From: Sphaerodactylus townsendi
Taxonomy: Eukaryota
Reading direction: 5' to 3'
DNA length: 64,000 bases
NCBI RefSeq assembly: GCF_021028975.2
Contig: NC_059427.1
Span: forward strand, 119,908,001-119,972,000
Shown here: positions 1 through 58,185 of the stretch, one piece after another
Position numbering within the stretch: position 1 is the first letter of the stretch
Layout of the letters: every line of letters begins with the position of its first letter
Notes under the pieces: generated by a model
What the model was told of the DNA's origin: nothing
Database searches by the model: none
What the model saw: only the letters and a program-made list of their open reading frames with translations
Program-made: the position numbers and the translations under genes

Positions 1-1422
1 TCATGGCAGGCCCGAGAGAGAAGCGGCGTTACTCAGAAGGCTGGCTTTGATGGGGCGAAAGACCCGATATATCCTGGCAAGCTTTGAGCATGTCGGCCAG
101 GCTCGGGGTTCCTTCCCTAGAAGCCTGTGATCGCTGGCGGCACAAACTCCAGCGGAGGCGTTCTCCTTGGCAAGGCGCTTAAGGAGTTAAGCCCTGGGCC
201 TCCTCGTTGTTGTCAACCTGCCTCTTGAGGGGCCTCCTGGAGCCTGTTCCACAAAGCTTCGGCATAGGGCTCTTGGGGTTTTGCCGGATGGTGGAGAAAC
301 TCTGGGTTGGCTGGCCGGCATTGGGGACTTTGATAAAATGCCTTATAGAGCGCACTCAGAAGCGCTTACACCGTGAAAGAGGTGGCCTCAAGCGCAGCGA
401 CCACTAATCTGATGCGTTGGGGTTGGCATGCGGTAAAGCATCGAAAACCGTAAAGCTGAGCCGGCTGTGTAGGGCACCGCCAGAGGCGGCTGCCACTGCT
501 AAGGCATTGCTGGCGGAACTCGCTTTCCCAGATCACAAATTGTGCAGGAGCCTCCAGTGAGGCATGCGGAAGAGTGGTCTTCCAGTCAGTCCGGGAACCA
601 TTAAGGTGACTCCTGCAGCGACTGCCTGCGAGCATGCTTCTCACATAGGGGCTGGTGACTCCTGACGTCCCAAGCACCGCTTTTCGCGGAGCTCTCGGTG
701 AGGAATATTATAGCTCAAGGGGCGGTACACCAGACAACCTCGCCCGAACTATGCCATCCTCCCCCACGGTATCTGTGAAGCCGGACGGGGCACAATGCAA
801 GGATATCGGCATCGTCTTCCGTCCAGGGTTTCTTTCTTCTGCAGATGCGTGGCTACTACGTTCTCGCGATGAGTTTTGAAACCCGCGCCATTATGTAATG
901 GCTGCTTGACGGAGAGTGCAGCGGCTTTGGAAACAATGAAGGCGAAGCAAGGGGAGGGGGCGGCTGGGCCGCGGGAGAGGATTTGAATTAGGTGTGAGGG
1001 AGGCCCGATGGGGGCAGAAGCTTAGGACAGAAGCGTCCAATTTAGTGGATAGATAGAAATTTCCGGGGTTGAAATTGAAGCTGTGAAAGATCGAAAGGAG
1101 GGCGGCCTTACAGCAAGGGAGCACCATAGGTCTGCACCGGGCTTTGATGGCGACAAAACATTGTCTCCACTGTCAGTAGCTTAGCGACATCGGCGTAGCC
1201 GCAGGGCTCTAAAGTCTCGAAGAGTGCGCCCGATGTTTTCCCCAGTCCTTAAGATTCAATGTCCCCTCTGGGTAAATTCATGGACACTCGAGCTTCAATC
1301 TCCTCAACCAATTCTGGCGCGAGCTCCCTTCTCTTTACAGGGACCCTGCCGCGATTCTAGATTAACGGCTTTCAGTTCGATCAACGTGCTTGCTCATAAG
1401 CCCTGCTTTTGCAAGCTCCCAT
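1..1422 (-). pseudogene. gag: gag of a class II (betaretrovirus-like) endogenous retrovirus, MA to CA, frameshifted, continuing past the left edge
   Basis: ATG at 1422 gives MGACKS (myristoylation consensus MGxxxS). Frame-hopping translation gives the MA motif (CP..P)EGTLNLKDW(E)NIGRTL, like HERV-K CPWFPEQGTLDLKDWKRIG. CA motifs follow: GVTSPYVRSML and DWKT...PAQFVIWESEFRQQC (ORF 366-677), an MHR-like FSTIRQNP.EPYA..FV.RLQEA, and LKRLAKENA...LADMLKACQDIG. Confidence 0.9.
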
Positions 1423-1607
1423 ACTCTTCACCGGTGTTCCGTTCGGGCGAGAGAGTGTCCTAGGACGGCGTGCAGAGCTCTGGATGCGCCCGGATCCAGA
1501 GGACAGAAGCGATACCGAAACGGTGGTCCCTGGATGCGCCGATCCAGCGGACTTCGGTATCGCGGCCCTTCCCCAGGCGACGGTGAGCAGGGGGGAGGTT
1601 CGAGGAT

Positions 1608-1625
1608 TCCCGGGTTTCGGCACCA
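1608..1625 (-). other. Primer-binding site complementary to the tRNA-Phe 3' end
   Basis: The - strand reads TGGTGCCGAAACCCGGGA, an 18-nt complement of tRNA-Phe(GAA) ...UCCCGGGUUUCGGCACCA. It starts 3 nt after the LTR's terminal CA. Confidence 0.92.
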
Positions 1626-1628
1626 GCT

Positions 1629-2068
1629 TGTAGTCGACCCACGCGGTCAGCGTAAGAACGAGACGAGACGCGGAGATGACATCTGGTGGAGATCGCCAGC
1701 AGCGGGAGACCGGAGGTCCGTGTTCCTAGCGAGTCTCCCGTCTGCCGGTTCCTGGCACCTTTTATTGTTATTCTATTGGGGGGCGCGGTAGGGAGGGAGG
1801 ACCGGGGGGAGTTCGGCGGGAGAGCGCCGGAGAAGTCCGAGGAGATCATCATGTGATGCATGATCTCACCTGGCTACGTGCGGAGAGGAGCGTAAGCGTC
1901 TGAGCCTAATCCTCACCTGGGGGCAAGACCATTGTCCCTGCGCCCGGTGATTGAGCCAGGCAGTTCATGACCCGTGACTCATGGGGGGATGAGGTGGGGG
2001 AGTCGCGGTCGACCAGTGCAAGGCCGTGTCAGAGGGTCCGTTAGGCGTCCCCTAACGTTTCTACTACA
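1629..2068 (-). mobile_element. 5' LTR (440 bp) of the ERV
   Basis: Begins TGTAGT (2068) and ends ACTACA (1629), a 6-bp terminal inverted repeat directly before the PBS. CCAAT followed by AATAAAAG at about 1778-1759. CpG-rich. Confidence 0.85.
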
Positions 2069-2157
2069 CACGGTGTGCTGCTGGATCAGCAGTGCATTAC
2101 TACACAATATATTATTGTAGTCTCCCAGCTTTCAGCAAGTCACCATTTTGGAAAATC

Positions 2158-51859: not shown

Positions 51860-52375
51860 GCCTCTCCTAATATACTCCCCAGAGGGCACTGCGCTGTGCA
51901 AATAACAATTTGTTGGGGGTTCCTGGCCCAAAAAGTGACCAGCTGTCTTCAACTAGAGCCAGGGCATTTTTGGCCCTGGCCCCAGCCTGGTGGAATGCTC
52001 TATCTAATGAGACCAGGACCCTGTGGGACTTGCCACAGTTCCGCAGGGCCTGCAAGATAGAGCTATTCCACCAAGCCTATAGTTGAGGACAGCTGCAGTA
52101 CTGTCATTGTCCATCTTATCCAACTTCTCTTTCCTCTTCCCTTTCCACTCTTCCCTTTTCTCTCCTTCTCCTCCTCTTTGTATTATTTAAAAATGACGAG
52201 ATTTCTATCCCACCCTGATATGCTATCTATATAGTTTTAGAAGTTTAAAAAAATTCTAGACCATTAGATTTTAAATGTTTTATTATTATTGAGACTGTGT
52301 TAATATATGGATTGTTAGCTGCTCTGAGTCAACTTGACGGGGAGAGCTGGGATATAAATTGAATGAATGAATAAA
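51860..52375 (+). mobile_element. L2-like LINE 3' fragment
   Basis: Homologous to 18066-18558. Ends in (TGAA)n. Confidence 0.7.
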
Positions 52376-52520
52376 AGCAATAAATGTAGGGAGCTGGGGC
52401 AGTAGCTTATATAAAAACAAACTCATAACTGAAAATGAGTAATTCCCAGCTTCTTCTCTTTATTGCTGAATTACTACATTGCTGCTACATATGCAAATAG
52501 CTAATTGTACAAAACACTGG

Positions 52521-52816
52521 GAAAGAGCCTTGTAGCACAGAGTGGTAAGCTGCAGTGCTGAAGTGAAAGCTCTGCTCATGACCTGAGTTCAGTCCCGGCG
52601 GAAGTCAGTGGCAGGAAGCCAGCTCAGGGTTGACTCAGCCTTCCATTCTTCTGAGGTCAATAAAATGAGTTCCCAGCTTGCTGGGGGTGAAGGGTAGACA
52701 ACTGGGGAAGGCAATGGCAAACCACCCTGTAAACATAGTCTGCTAAGTAAATGTTGCGATGTGATGTCACAACATACCACTAATGACCCACTGTTTGCAC
52801 AGGGGATTACCTTTAC
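52521..52816 (+). mobile_element. Sauria SINE
   Basis: tRNA-like head, GTTGACTCAGCCTTCCAT core, GGGGAAGGCAATGGCAAACCACC Bov-B-related part and ACCTTTAC tail. Confidence 0.85.
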
Positions 52817-52907
52817 AAAACATTCGCACTGTGATAATTTTCATGGCATGCTGTACGATTTCCCCCCCTTCCCTTTCTGAAATTGCTTATGACCTTTCCT
52901 TTTACAG

Positions 52908-55900
52908 AAAGAAGTAAATGAGACAGCGCAGGTGACGCATGAACGAGCCCAGCAGTCTGAGAACGCAGCCAGGTCACTGAAAGAATCAGACACCCTTAAA
53001 TCTCAGCTGGAAGAGGAAAGGAGCAAGAAAGCCAGGGCTCAGCAGGAGCTCGAAGAACAGAGGAACAAACTTCTGACACTGAAGACCCAGCGGCCCATTG
53101 AAAGAGTAGAGGAGAAGGAGGTGATGGAGTATTATAGAGATCCCACTCTGGAGAGCAACCTGTCTAAACTATCTCAGCAAATTGAGGAGGAGAATAAGAA
53201 GAGAAAGTGCCTACAGGCAGAAATTGAGATGATGAACCATAAAGTCCTTCAAACAGAGAAAGATAGGAAGGTTGTGAAAGCCCAGTTACTTACTAAAGAG
53301 GTTACTAAGATAGAGAAAGATCCAAGCCTAGATGCTCAAGCAACTCATCTTAGAGAAGAAATCAGGTCTCTCAGAGAGAATTCAACTTCCTCCTCTGACC
53401 TCGAGCAACTCAGAAAAGAACTAAACTTCCTGGAGCAAAAACAGCCAAACATTCGAGAGAAAGTGGTGATAAAGGAGATGGTCAAGCTGGAGAAGGACCC
53501 AGAGATGCTAAAATCAATCAGGACATTGCAGATGCAAATTGATGAAGACAGTTTCAAGAGAAAGTCTGTGGAAGATACAATAGGAAAGCTGAAAAGCAGA
53601 ATTGAAGAGCTCGAAAAGCTGATTGAAACAGCTGAACCTAAAGTTATTGTAAAGGAGGTGAAGCAAGTGGAACAAGATCCAGAGCTTCTGAAGGAGTGTT
53701 CCAAGCTTCACACTCTAATTGAAGAGGAGAGGAACAAGACCTTGGAACTAGCAAAAGAACTGACGGACCTTCAGAACAGGTATAGCACTGTGGAGAAGCA
53801 AAAGCCGAAAGTGGAGGTTAAAGAAAGAATAAATGAGATCTTCCGGCTTGACCCAGAAACAGAAGAGGAGATTGCACGTCTGAAAAGGGAACTTCAAGAA
53901 GTTACCAGAAAAAGGAAGAGGGTTGACCAAGAGGTGGACACATTCTTATCTGAGCTCAATGTTCTCAGGTCTCAGAAACCCACAGTGGAGTTTAAAGAGG
54001 TCATCCAAGAGGTGGTGAAGATGGAAAAGAGCCCTGAGGTTCTGAGAGAAATAGACAGACTGAAACAACAACTGAATGATCTTGTGAATGCCAATGGAAG
54101 GTTCCAGGAACAGTTGATCAGGATTCAGGGAGAACGGGATGAGTGGAAGAGGGAAAAATCGAAGGTTGAAACCAAGCTAGTTACTAAGGAGGTTGTAATA
54201 TACGAGAACGACCCTCTGTTAGAGAAGGAAGCTGAACGTCTCCGCCAGGAAGTACGTGGTGCATCACAAAAGAGAAGAGCAACTGAAGATGCCATTTATG
54301 ACCTACAGAATAAGTACATACTCTTGGAAAGGAGAAAACCTGAGGAAAAAGTTGTGGTCCAAGAGGTAGTAGTTATGCAGAAAGATCCAAAGCTGCGAGA
54401 TGAGCATAGCAGGCTGAGTAGGAGCCTGGATGATGAAGTGAGCAATCGCCGACGCCTGGAACGCGAAGTCCAGCAGATTCGGGCAGTAGTGGAAGAGGAG
54501 GAAAAGTTGCTTAACTTCCAAGAAGACAGAACCAAAAGGCTTGCTTTGGAAAAGGAAATGCGGCAGATCACCTTGAGAATAAAGGAAATTGAGGAAAGTC
54601 CTACCCCGGTTCAAGAGAAAATAATCATGCAGGAAATGGTCAAATTAGAGAAAGATCCAGTTCTTGAGCAGTCTACTACTAACCTACGAATAGATTTGGA
54701 TAATGAGAAGGCTCAAGTGTTGAACCTACAGAGGGAGTGCAAGAATCTAGAATCCCAGATTGAGGCTCTACAAAAAACAAAGTCCCAGGAAAAAACCATC
54801 TACAAGGAAGTAATCAGAGTAGAAAAAGATAAAGTATTAGAAAACGAACGAGCCCGTCTTTGGGATCTGTTGAGTAGGGAGAGAACTGCTCGACAAAACG
54901 CTGAAGAAGATATCAGGCGTCTCAAGGAGAAAATTGAGAGAGCAGAAGGCATGATGAGGACATGGTCCAGAGAAGAAATGGAGCTCCAGAAAACACAAAA
55001 TGTGATTATGCAAGAAAAAGACGATATCGAGAATGAATTAATGGAACTGGAAAGGCAGAAGCAACAGAAAATCCTCTTCCTTAGAGAGCAGACTAAGCTT
55101 TTGAGCCAGAGGACAGAGAATGACAGGCAAAAAAAGATGCAACTTGGTCAAGAGCTTTCTCTCCTTGAATCAAATATACTCAGAGAGAAGGACCAGATTT
55201 ATGAAAAAGAAAGGACTATTCGTGAGCTCCAGTCCAAAGTCAACAGAGAAGAGCTGAACCAAGAGACCAGGATGAGGGAGACCAATCTTTCAACAAAGAT
55301 CTCTATTCTGGATCCAGATACTGGCAAGGACGTATCACCCTATGAGGCCTACAAGAGAGGTATGATAGACAGGAGCCAATATATTCATCTGCAAGAACTC
55401 GAGTGTGATTGGGAGGAAATCACAACCCTAGGGCCCAAAGGAGATATGTCTGTCCTCCTTGACAAGAAGAGTGGAAAGCAGTACTCGATTGATGATGCCT
55501 TACGATTTAGAAGGATTACAAAGGAAGAATTCCAGCTCTACAGGGAAGGCAAGTTACCTATCTCTGAGTTTGCTCTGCTGGTAGCAGGAGAAACAAAGCA
55601 GACTGCACCCCTGTCTATTGGCTCAATAATCTCGAAGTCTCCAGCTACATCTCCCAGTTTCCAACAAAAACAGGACTTCTTTCCTCATGCACAAATACCC
55701 TTCTGTGATGACACTTTTCCCATTGCTGGAGTGTATGACTCAACCACTGACAAAAAGTACAACATCAAATCTGCTCTTAACAAGAAGCTGGTGGACCCAA
55801 TGACAGCTCAAAAGCTCCTAGAAGCACAGGCAGCTACCGGAGGCATTGTTGATCTTATGTCTCGAGATCGTTACTCTGTCCATAAAGCCATTGATAGAGG

Positions 55901-56351
55901 GCTGATTGACGACACTTACATGCAGAGGCTGCTGAATGCCCAGAAAGCGTTCACAGGGATTGAAGATCCAGTCACCAAAAGAAGACTGTCCATAGGAGAG
56001 GCAGTTCAGAAAGGGTGGATAACAGTGGACAGTGCCTTTCCATATATGCAGGTGCAGCATCTGACTGGAGGGCTAATAGATCCCAAGAAAACTGGTCGTA
56101 TCCCAGCGGCGGAAGCTGTCCAGATTGGCATGCTTAACAGTGATCTGGCCACGATGCTGAAAGATGAATCTAACTATGAAAAGGATCTGGTTGACCCTAT
56201 CCACAAAGAAAAAATTCATTACAAGGAAGCTATGGCTCGTTGTCGGAAAGATCCTCTAAGCGGGCTCCTCCTCCTGCCAGCTGCCTCTGATGGTTACCAA
56301 TCGTATCAGTCAGCAAATCGTTCACCCAATTTGCCCCGGTACAGGCGTTGA
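52908..56351 (+). CDS. EVPL: Envoplakin exon 22 (coiled-coil rod, linker and C-terminal plakin repeat domain)
   Basis: 3444-nt open frame after tttacag|. Contains KEVxKxEKDP rod repeats, linker ECDWEEIT, and PRD motifs QKLLEAQAATGGIVD and TGGLIDP...CRKDPLSGLLLLP. The PRD distinguishes envoplakin from periplakin. Confidence 0.98.
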   Translation, partial: KEVNETAQVTHERAQQSENAARSLKESDTLKSQLEEERSKKARAQQELEEQRNKLLTLKTQRPIERVEEKEVMEYYRDPTLESNLSKLSQQIEEENKKRKCLQAEIEMMNHKVLQTEKDRKVVKAQLLTKEVTKIEKDPSLDAQATHLREEIRSLRENSTSSSDLEQLRKELNFLEQKQPNIREKVVIKEMVKLEKDPEMLKSIRTLQMQIDEDSFKRKSVEDTIGKLKSRIEELEKLIETAEPKVIVKEVKQVEQDPELLKECSKLHTLIEEERNKTLELAKELTDLQNRYSTVEKQKPKVEVKERINEIFRLDPETEEEIARLKRELQEVTRKRKRVDQEVDTFLSELNVLRSQKPTVEFKEVIQEVVKMEKSPEVLREIDRLKQQLNDLVNANGRFQEQLIRIQGERDEWKREKSKVETKLVTKEVVIYENDPLLEKEAERLRQEVRGASQKRRATEDAIYDLQNKYILLERRKPEEKVVVQEVVVMQKDPKLRDEHSRLSRSLDDEVSNRRRLEREVQQIRAVVEEEEKLLNFQEDRTKRLALEKEMRQITLRIKEIEESPTPVQEKIIMQEMVKLEKDPVLEQSTTNLRIDLDNEKAQVLNLQRECKNLESQIEALQKTKSQEKTIYKEVIRVEKDKVLENERARLWDLLSRERTARQNAEEDIRRLKEKIERAEGMMRTWSREEMELQKTQNVIMQEKDDIENELMELERQKQQKILFLREQTKLLSQRTENDRQKKMQLGQELSLLESNILREKDQIYEKERTIRELQSKVNREELNQETRMRETNLSTKISILDPDTGKDVSPYEAYKRGMIDRSQYIHLQELECDWEEITTLGPKGDMSVLLDKKSGKQYSIDDALRFRRITKEEFQLYREGKLPISEFALLVAGETKQTAPLSIGSIISKSPATSPSFQQKQDFFPHAQIPFCDDTFPIAGVYDSTTDKKYNIKSALNKKLVDPMTAQKLLEAQAATGGIVDLMSRDRYSVHKAIDRGLIDDTYMQRLLNAQKAFTGIEDPVTKRRLSIGEAVQKGWITVDSAFPYMQVQHLTGGLIDPKKTGRIPAAEAVQIGMLNSDLATMLKDESNYEKDLVDPIHKEKIHYKEAMARCRKDPLSGLLLLPAASDGYQSYQSANRSPNLPRYRR

Positions 56352-56434
56352 GGCAAGCGCTGTACTCTTCAGTTTCCATATTCCCTCAGGTGCTTCAAAC
56401 CGTCAGCAGAGTCCATTGGCAAACAGTGTACCTG

Positions 56435-56454
56435 GTATTGTCGAAGGCTTTTAC
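56435..56454 (-). mobile_element. 20-bp ultra-truncated Penelope-like insertion in the EVPL 3' UTR
   Basis: GTATTGTCGAAGGCTTTTAC (19/20 match to the family terminus) flanked by CAGTGTAC(C/T)TG direct repeats. Confidence 0.75.
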
Positions 56455-56603
56455 CAGTGTACTTGGTACTTGTGGATGGGTGTAAGCTGTACTAGATAGC
56501 TAGTCCTGTTTCCTTATACCAAGGCAGCAAAGTATTTCAAGGAGAAGCTTGCTTTCCTGAAGGTAGAAGGGTTCTAATGCAGTATACTGTGGGACAGCAA
56601 TTG

Positions 56604-56685
56604 AATAAATAAGCTTGGGGGGATTTTTAGCTATGTCTTTGTATCAAGATGCTTTGAGTTAAATTGTTGCCATGCATGCAATAAA
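56604..56685 (+). terminator. Candidate EVPL polyadenylation signals (AATAAA at 56604 and 56680)
   Basis: First canonical hexamers about 250 and 330 nt after the stop codon. Confidence 0.5.
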
Positions 56686-58185
56686 AAATTTAAAGATTTA
56701 AGACTCCATTAGTTATTTTTAAAACTGGGGACACTTCAAATCAGAATCCCAACTGTGATGAAAGGTGTGGAGGTAAGCTTATATTTGAACTGAACTCAAG
56801 AGCAATAGGGAAAGAGATTTTTTTAAGAACACCAATAGTGAGAGAGGTTACATGGAAACTCCTAAGCGAAAGCTGCATGCAACCCCAGACAGGACAATAG
56901 GCTTTAGAATGTCAGCTTCTGTGTAGAAAGTACAGCACCCATATTTTCAAGCTTCAGGTAACAATGAGGGCTAGCAACTTGCTTTAGAATGACCACTAAA
57001 TGCAATAAGACCCAGATCTTCAAAATAAAAAAGGGGACAGAGTCACAAATATATATGCCAAGTGGTCCATCACTTGTCAAGAGGGTATTTTAAAAGAACA
57101 AGTATTTTTTTCAAAGCTCAAGGTTAACCCAGGCATGTTTTATTTTCTTTCGTGCATGAGGAAACTTCTATAATAACATTAACAATTAATGATTAAAAAT
57201 AACTTCAAACATTAACAGGAACTCTTAGACATGTAACTGTAGTTGGCCAAGAGCTGAAAATGGGAGTTTGTTGAATATTTATCCTTTGATGTTCCATACC
57301 ATATAACTCATTCAGCTTCTCTTCTTGGCATAATAATGAACAAATTTGACATTGTGATTGAACTAAAAATTAAAACTCTTAACATTATTTAAAAGGACAT
57401 TGCCCTCTCTACCATTAGGAACCCCATTTCTTAATATACATTGTTGTTTGTACCATTGAGAACATTAGCTCTATCTTGAGGGGAAATCTTCCCTAAGTGC
57501 GGAAGCAGTTTTAATGTACCACACAAGATATGATAATGACAGATGCTGAAAGAAAGTCAGGTTATTATATTACGTTTCTTGATGACTCAAGGAAATCGTG
57601 GTGATACCCCAACACATAGTACCCTGTTCACTGTACCTTCTACGGGCTGCATCAATATAGTCTACATTACTTTAACCAACTTTTCTGTGATTTATCTAAA
57701 CAGCTCACAAATGTGGTTGCTGAAGAAGAACACAGCCAAACTTCTGCTCCATTCTGGCTACTCAAACAGAAAGTAGTCTTAAGGCTAGCAGTGCAATTCT
57801 ATGATGAGTTATGCCAGACTAACCCAACTGACTTCAGTTGATTTTGACAGGAGTAACTCCATATGGGATTGCTCTTTGAGAATCACGTTGGTTCAGTCTT
57901 CTTCTCTAGGGCAATAACTGATAGCCTCAAGCTTGTGTGTCTCATTGAAAGAACATACAACAGCTATAAGAAGTTATGCAGTTTACAAGAGCCAAAATTT
58001 ATATTAACATAATATTAGTCCCACCAAAGATTGAAAGCATCTTAACCAGATTCCACTGTAGTCATTCTAACATCTTGTTTAATTATTAGGAAGGGTTTAC
58101 GCCAGAGGGCCCTTCCTGCAGAAGCCCAGTTTAAAACCGCTTCTTCTCCTGGGCTATATTTCTTTACCACTCTGTGGCTGGCATC

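Follow-up and report, generated by a model that had tools for sequence, protein, structure and literature searches.

What kind of retrovirus left the sequence at the left edge of this 64,000-nucleotide stretch of Sphaerodactylus townsendi DNA (the window), and how do its relatives spread? We found that the sequence is a genuine provirus with a class II gag. The family to which it belongs occurs in several layouts with complementary genes, and we regard it as a credible candidate case of natural genome division in a retrovirus.

Structure of the provirus

The provirus lies on the minus strand and continues to the left of the window (Table 1). An initial annotation had placed the ACTACA end of the LTR where we find it. 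The TGTAGT that it took for the opposite edge, at 2068, is internal to the LTR, which starts at 2104. The letters CACGGT (2069-2074), proposed as a target-site duplication (TSD), belong to the LTR as well; the true duplication, ATATTG, flanks both ends of the provirus.

Table 1. Parts of the provirus at the left edge of the window (window positions except in the first row; layout types are described in the text)
Feature	Position (strand)	Comment
Whole provirus	G000:C3:119903942-119910104	type C, 6,163 bp, two LTRs; window share 1..2104 (-)
5' LTR, TGTAGT...ACTACA	1629..2104 (-)	476 bp in the assembly vs 447-448 bp in cleaner copies
AATAAA within 5' LTR	1761-1766	
TSD ATATTG, upstream copy	2105..2110 (-)	second copy directly after the 3' LTR
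Spacer between 5' LTR and PBS	1626-1628	3 nt
tRNA-Phe(GAA) PBS	1608..1625 (-)	18/18 match
5' leader	1423..1607 (-)	common to types A, B and C; packaging signal presumed from position
gag: MA, CA	1..1422 (-)	ATG at 1422; many frames in the assembly; runs on left of the window
MHR-like stretch of CA	253-283 (-)	

Several features that the initial annotation described are borne out. The primer-binding site (PBS) is indeed a perfect match to tRNA-Phe, corresponding to CCA plus the last 15 nt of a host tRNA-Phe(GAA) gene (chance 2e-6). Three tRNA-Phe(GAA) genes match the PBS pattern, and ARAGORN confirmed both of the two that were checked. No tRNA gene was found inside the 64-kb window. The gag start, given as MGxxxS, reads MGACKS, and the beta-type CA is recognizable within the window as an N-terminal PF00607 match, although its E value of 0.002 falls below the curated cut-off. 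CpG is dense as described, with an observed/expected ratio of 0.83 in positions 1-2068 vs 0.25 in the remaining window. Elsewhere in the genome, L189:933-2319 holds a cluster of tRNA-Ser(GCT), tRNA-Phe(GAA) and tRNA-Gln(TTG) genes. Positions 52001-58000 of the window show strong AT skew (up to 0.28) together with GC skew and are probably a LINE or simple repeat.

The search to the left for pol and a 3' LTR, which the initial annotation had proposed, succeeded in part: the 3' LTR is present (448 bp), but pol is found in sister copies and not in this one. A lack of downstream pol was among the results that the initial annotation had named as refuting its claim, and it applies to this copy. Beyond the window, the end of gag is followed by a dUTPase stub and then by about 2 kb without a Pfam match, which includes a short degenerate duplicate of gag. 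The 3' part consists of a segment of the type B layout, an env that has lost most of SU and kept TM, a polypurine tract and the 3' LTR. Protease, RT, RNase H and integrase core are missing from the whole 6,163 bp.

Probable assembly errors, age and an empty site

The leader and gag of the window copy differ from one sister copy by 101 insertion events, 4 deletions and 31 substitutions over 1,640 columns, with 4-12 events per 100 columns past the first 100 columns. This insertion-biased spectrum ruled out ageing as the source of the frameshifts. Two pairs of other copies are 3 and 5 indels apart. We therefore infer that the frameshifts of the window copy are mostly uncorrected long-read consensus error and not biological decay, so that reading frames in the assembly are no guide to its true coding state. 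Contigs aligned to the window locus mostly omit letters (11 of the 12 rows shown); these contigs stem from all copies and are no proof for this locus. The error bursts also make the copy's own LTR pair unusable for dating. The comparison of its 5' and 3' LTRs, which had been suggested, could be made and gave 437 matches, 10 mismatches, 29 extra letters in the 5' LTR and 1 in the 3' LTR.

Other copies, drawn from the same single assembly with its errors in repeats, were more informative. LTR pairs of the cleaner young copies carry 0-1 substitutions (three of six in the first set, the other three being error-laden). Copies with older LTRs have pairs 0.9-5.7% apart, with a median of about 3% (12 usable among 20 tried; 7 gave no pair and 1 was paired with another element).

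A public read set, run X2, yielded one contig that joins both flanks of the window provirus, with 198 and 195 letters per side and a single ATATTG. Its depth is 33, compared with 31 in the flanks. Because this contig crosses an empty site, the window insertion is unfixed, which upholds the recent integration proposed in the initial annotation. Contigs from runs X1 and X5 enter the LTR from the flanks by 21-28 letters and give only a hint of the filled allele, since a bridging call needs at least 31 letters inside the LTR.

The family has close relatives in data that carry different organism labels. Runs X5 and X6, labelled as organisms B and C, contain at least a third of the sequence words of type B pol and cover the element, and the runs of organisms D and E contain 8-12% of these words. 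No RNA data set with the type B pol stretch was among those listed, a result that has no bearing on its expression.

Three layouts behind one LTR

The initial annotation called the element hidden. It is neither hidden nor rare: the exact LTR-PBS junction occurs 445 times in the genome and a control 0 times, a count that is inflated by doubled contigs and deflated by sequence errors. A search with the LTR gave 4,162 candidates, of which 40 were scored. Among the first 13 copies that we read, seven had a layout that we call type A, three type B and three, including the window copy, type C. All three types have the LTR, Phe PBS, leader and polypurine tract in common.

Type A begins with a Gag of about 506 aa from its ATG. 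Its dUTPase-protease follows in the -1 frame, and after that come a spacer, the tail of an integrase and a complete env of the ASLV type; it lacks pol. The heptamer GGGAAAC, presumably the slippery site of type A, is present in 7/7 A copies and in 0/6 B or C copies. Type B is a single frame that opens with Gag, crosses what is left of a degenerate protease and continues into RT-RNase H-IN, followed by an env from which most of SU is missing. Type C has gag, a dUTPase stub and non-coding DNA, and then the 3' end of type B (95% over 1.6 kb).

We typed all 39 exact junctions on chromosome C1 (20 copies from 7.5 kb and 19 from 1.5 kb only) and found 25 A, 11 C, 2 B and one C-like copy of unsettled type; none was complete. 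The type B layout was the same in the 12 chromosomal copies read, several of which have their own target duplication. In the 25 copies with readable flanks, TSDs read by eye were 6 bp long in 18 and 5 bp long in 7.

Many of the clean B sequences are small contigs of about twice the unit length, possibly collapsed repeats. Contigs C570, C1301 and C1429 (L013, L015 and L016) and C666 (L014) read LTR-internal-LTR-internal with identical LTRs, and three of them are almost exactly twice the unit. These are probably assembler loops from collapsed repeats, and circular one-LTR DNA is less likely. Two type C copies, L019:5546-9901 and L154, contain kilobases of poly-C/poly-G-like interruption, a likely assembly artefact. 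Four B copies (L041/L128, L042, L046 and L048) break frame 168-169 codons before RT, near NC, and possibly form a subtype that keeps a gag/pol frameshift. The pol-bearing copy L200 has another protease deletion and resembles the type C dUTPase stub; protease may have been lost more than once, and type C may descend from the L200 line.

We compared the histories of the types using trees. The LTR tree (45 rows, many forks below 95%) is a ladder from old to young in which A, B and C are interleaved among the youngest copies. The CA tree (30 rows) sets young A apart from B and C with 96% SH-like support. An A-specific spacer occurs in all 7 A copies tested, whether old, intermediate or young, and is missing from B and C as well as from the older copies that keep pol (described below). 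Since old, intermediate and young A copies have this spacer in common, type A is one long-lived pol-less line.

A class II core with an alpharetrovirus-type envelope

The 107 best homologues of type B RT are Pol proteins of class II type that carry RVT_thumb or beta-type Gag domains. Its best PDB match is 7sr6 (E 9e-141), which we take to be the HERV-K RT. An RT tree of 35 rows supports a class II placement at 100/100 against two outgroup rows; this assignment rests on type B, as the window copy has no RT. The nearest RT proteins come from turtles, snakes and lizards (Natator, Thamnophis, Emys and Podarcis among others, 49-59% identity), in agreement with the class II, reptile-related origin first proposed. 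In this tree, which contains no MMTV, HERV-K, ASLV or PyERV, the family's RT lies outside a 100/100 clade of SRV-1, SRV-4, IAP, rodent and bird ERVs and lies in an open fork among reptile and other rows.

The core is otherwise betaretrovirus-like. Its Gag has the beta-type p10 MA, p24 CA and CCHC NC domains (PF02337, PF00607, PF19317, PF00098 and PF14787), and type A carries the dUTPase and protease domains PF00692 and PF00077 in a separate -1 frame that overlaps gag. The LTR-PBS-polypurine tract layout with a TSD of 5-6 bp is that of class II. IAP elements are primed by Phe, a PBS that the family has in common with them, but the family's RT is 51% identical to the IAP row and lies elsewhere in the tree, which sets it apart from IAP.

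The envelope is of another kind. TM is of the avian gamma type, with an internal fusion peptide between two cysteines, an ISD and a CX6CC motif; both cysteines and the CX6CC are invariant in 8/8 aligned Envs. Its best PDB matches are ASLV TM (E 3e-13). The nearest Env proteins are from Anolis, Caretta, Elgaria, Sceloporus and Crotalus (E 2e-109 to 7e-76, 40-46%), and the best Env identities are 49% or less. Alpharetroviruses have the protease in the gag frame, lack dUTPase and use a tRNA-Trp primer, whereas this family has a separate pro frame, a dUTPase and a Phe PBS. By the definitions given in the accessible part of PMC3758190, the TM is neither beta-type nor the gamma type with an N-terminal fusion peptide (type D). 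The label beta-like thus fits gag-pro-pol and fails for env. To judge from these sequences, the family joins a betaretrovirus-type core to an envelope of the alpharetrovirus type and belongs to neither genus.

Search for a complete genome

The 30 best RT loci (four cut by contig ends, some the two halves of one contig) had no dUTPase and no full protease, and a weak protease remnant was seen in two. In 18 of these loci the reading frame stays open between the capsid MHR and RT, and no protease catalytic triad occurs within the 200 codons that precede RT. Conversely, no RT was found at the 30 best protease loci.

The strict idea that no protease-RT junction exists anywhere in the genome was refuted and had to be narrowed to the young and intermediate families. 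A protease end adjoins an RT start at 32 loci, all of which we read. None of them showed the young LTR: 23 have LTRs 65-75% alike and nine have no LTR match, four of the latter with an old PBS junction. At 29 of the 32, only a stub of RT is retained, mostly followed by an integrase tail and env, which identifies them as older type A. The other three keep RT through RNase H beside the protease, and in one of these every one of the four gene regions is present. The assembly shows breaks in their reading frames, though these may be false given its errors in repeats. These older pol-keeping copies are far from young B in pol (dS 1.2-1.3), and their LTRs are about 70% alike and differ at the ends.

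Motif searches, which miss error-laden copies because they demand exact matches, gave a similar partition. There are 95 YMDD cores and 120 RT-start motifs in the genome; 100 of the latter were classed by eye as 54 young B, 30 old protease-adjacent, 14 intermediate and 2 other. Chromosomes C1-C3 contain 94 intact protease active-site motifs and 24 YMDD cores, and a single locus, with an old LTR, has both. The intact protease motif was detected in 16/25 A copies vs upstream of 1/24 RT cores on C1-C3 (p 1e-5).

Pol-bearing loci of intermediate age preserve a series. We read upstream of 18 of them, with 12 further intermediate-type YMDD loci outside this reading, and 17 of the 18 lack a protease catalytic motif. 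The series runs from a protease of full length that is fused to pol and has altered motifs (2) to one whose catalytic part is deleted or degenerate (16); the remnant reads on into RT. In one intermediate copy, a fused protease of full length still has its catalytic triad. Seven of the 12 further YMDD loci lie on C1-C3 and have no intact protease motif, judged by coordinates.

Selection on the retained genes

We estimated dN/dS by pooled pairwise Nei-Gojobori comparison of related copies, without error bars and with broken domains dropped. In young A, dN/dS was 0.09 for CA (n=27), 0.05 for dUTPase (n=26), 0.10 for protease (n=27), 0.22 for SU (n=7) and 0.15 for TM (n=6). Comparing old with young A over the same domains gave 0.07-0.16 at dS 0.7-1.7. 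In type B, values were 0.09-0.10 for RT (n=18), 0.11 for RNase H (n=18), 0.04 for IN (n=8) and 0.16-0.17 for CA (n=17). The type B protease remnant is neutral at 1.02 (18 copies), beside an RT at 0.10. In nine type C copies, dN/dS was 0.18 for CA and 0.35 for MA. The protease and env of A and the RT and IN of B are therefore under purifying selection (0.04-0.22).

Work on HERV-K has tied selection on env to spread via particles that re-enter cells. By analogy, the selection on the gecko env suggests spread through such particles. An element that is copied only in trans can do without working genes (PMC8922424), so the genes kept by each type matter for its own spread.

A probable division of the genome between two types

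Together, A and B hold every gene once. Given the observed layouts, counts, selection pattern, trees and insertion polymorphism, we think that the two types probably complement each other as a retrovirus divided between two genomes with no complete helper. Type A genomes would supply Gag, protease, dUTPase and envelope, and type B genomes would supply polymerase and integrase as a Gag-Pol fusion. Through its in-frame fusion, B would act as a dedicated source of Gag-Pol, which would co-assemble with the Gag of A, and perhaps that of C, and be cut by the protease of A. Release of retroviral Pol requires the viral protease, and Gag-Pol alone assembles poorly; by these rules B could not mature alone and A could not copy itself. 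As the LTR, Phe PBS, leader and polypurine tract are common to A, B and C, we propose that all three are packaged, copied and integrated. Type C would encode Gag only and be carried along, perhaps contributing some additional Gag. The scheme thus supposes co-expression, co-packaging and processing in trans. Co-packaged retroviral RNAs recombine, and recombination within mixed particles could keep the LTRs of A, B and C in step; the interleaved LTRs hint indirectly that A and B may act in one cell or particle. In the fuller proposal, this is a natural bipartite, enveloped class II retrovirus whose genes are stably split over two co-packaged genomes. Their mutual dependence would have lasted through several turnovers of the LTR, no complete genome would remain, and insertion into the germ line would still be under way. 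The pair of RNA slots in a virion would act as two segments, with the Gag-only form as a third alongside. On that proposal we are evenly divided.

Some results run against a split. The MA of type B has a dN/dS of 0.92 (n=8), a value not foreseen by the divided-genome model, although membrane targeting may be dispensable in B, with B relying on the Gag of A. The three older copies with RT-RNase H beside protease, the four-gene copy among them, and the intermediate copy with its triad also count against the model.

A complete young virus, whether missing from the assembly, carried by other animals or exogenous, could instead mobilise A, B and C as ordinary helper-dependent derivatives. Recombination with such a helper would refresh the LTRs just as mixed particles would, the assembly is error-prone, and RT starts and LTR matches were examined only in part (100 of 120 and 40 of 4,162). 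The pattern is also a known one, as in MusD/ETn, IAP, KoRV and cattle ERVK, where 15% of elements are competent and 85% defective in the available text of PMC10924933. We nevertheless regard this explanation as unlikely. None of the 39 copies on C1 is complete, and the one RT core of 24 on C1-C3 with an intact protease motif has an old LTR. No ORF is left in the cattle D-type elements, but in A and B complementary genes persist under purifying selection, and a complete helper would not explain why RT is kept in B and protease in A.

We give still less weight to partial dependence. Here protease or polymerase would come in trans from the few older copies with four genes, or from an ERV family unrelated to this one, and A and B would each be semi-autonomous without necessarily needing the other. 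Older pol-keeping copies do exist, but their divergence in pol and LTR from young B speaks against them as donors, and the LTR sub-variants of young A and B are common to these two and not to the older copies. That the layouts are artefacts of collapsed repeats, as the error bursts in chromosomal copies, the doubled small contigs and the long poly-C stretch in two loci might suggest, is hardly credible and already largely refuted, because every layout recurs at many chromosomal sites with its own target duplications and sequencing error could not produce synonymous-biased divergence.

Comparison with known systems

The comparisons that follow rest on the accessible parts of the cited papers. 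Florendoviruses, which are endogenous Caulimoviridae, likewise comprise two components with complementary domains and near-identical non-coding regions, were likewise inferred from genome fossils, and likewise have a helper not formally excluded (PMC4241990). They are plant DNA pararetroviruses without integrase, whereas the gecko family is integrating and enveloped and has recent unfixed insertions. The same paper calls the bipartite layout unique among viral retroelements and retroviruses diploid, not bipartite. In wheat, the partners RLG_Cereba/Quinta, Wilma/Sabrina/WHAM and Angela also share LTR, PBS and PPT, and the pol-less partner keeps Gag or Gag-Pro, as types A and C keep gag (PMC11302176, PMC9744471). 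LTR trees pair the wheat partners and internal trees do not, as in the gecko family (PMC9744471). The pol-bearing wheat partner is fully autonomous, however, whereas type B lacks protease and env and the dependence appears to be two-way (PMC11302176, PMC9744471).

Defective forms also outnumber competent ones in cattle ERVK[2-1-LTR] C/D, MusD/ETn, IAP 1delta1 and KoRV/recKoRV, and IAP 1delta1 has an in-frame gag-pol fusion as type B does (PMC10924933, PMC6466679). Unlike the two-way split, the cattle, mouse and koala systems are described as one-way parasitism on a complete helper, with D-type elements devoid of ORFs. IAP 1delta1 depends on other IAPs for both Gag and Pol (PMC10924933, PMC6466679); in type B, by contrast, RT, RNase H and IN are retained under selection.

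The envelope has precedents. Alpharetrovirus-like envelopes are reported to be ubiquitous in reptiles (PMC13568524), and these, Mab-Env3/4 and bat CHIRalphaEnv are likewise of the avian gamma type (PMC13568524, bioRxiv 10.1101/2021.11.05.467493). The envelope type is thus already known in reptiles, to go by these sources and with Mab-Env3/4 likened by description; here it occurs within a young, multiplying class II family. PyERV, also from a reptile, likewise combines class II gag-pol with an env of the covalent type (PMC3758190), though its env is described as murine gammaretrovirus-like and differs by that description from the avian variant found here. As a class II ERV of reptiles that is Phe-primed and has an alpha-type env, the family adds a further member to known kinds; what stands out is the two-way split. 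We found no reciprocal ERV pair and no account of this family in the literature searched, which did not extend to subscription papers or supplements such as reptile ERV catalogues.

If the divided-genome model is true, a polymerase carrier that needs a protease and env carrier extends split genomes from plant florendoviruses to retroviruses. The genome preserves steps on the way (protease fusion, alteration and deletion; RT stub and loss), which makes genome division testable on dated copies. Screens that rank ERVs by four intact genes would call this family dead, or, if they start from pol, miss most copies; either way it would be passed over despite its unfixed insertions.

Some turtle gene models, which we excluded from the support for the split, look similar. 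Models P0126-P0131 and P0134 from sea turtles read dUTPase-protease(-env) without RT, and P0012 from Emys reads CA-RT-IN without protease. They may represent annotation splicing artefacts, or the same two layouts in turtles.
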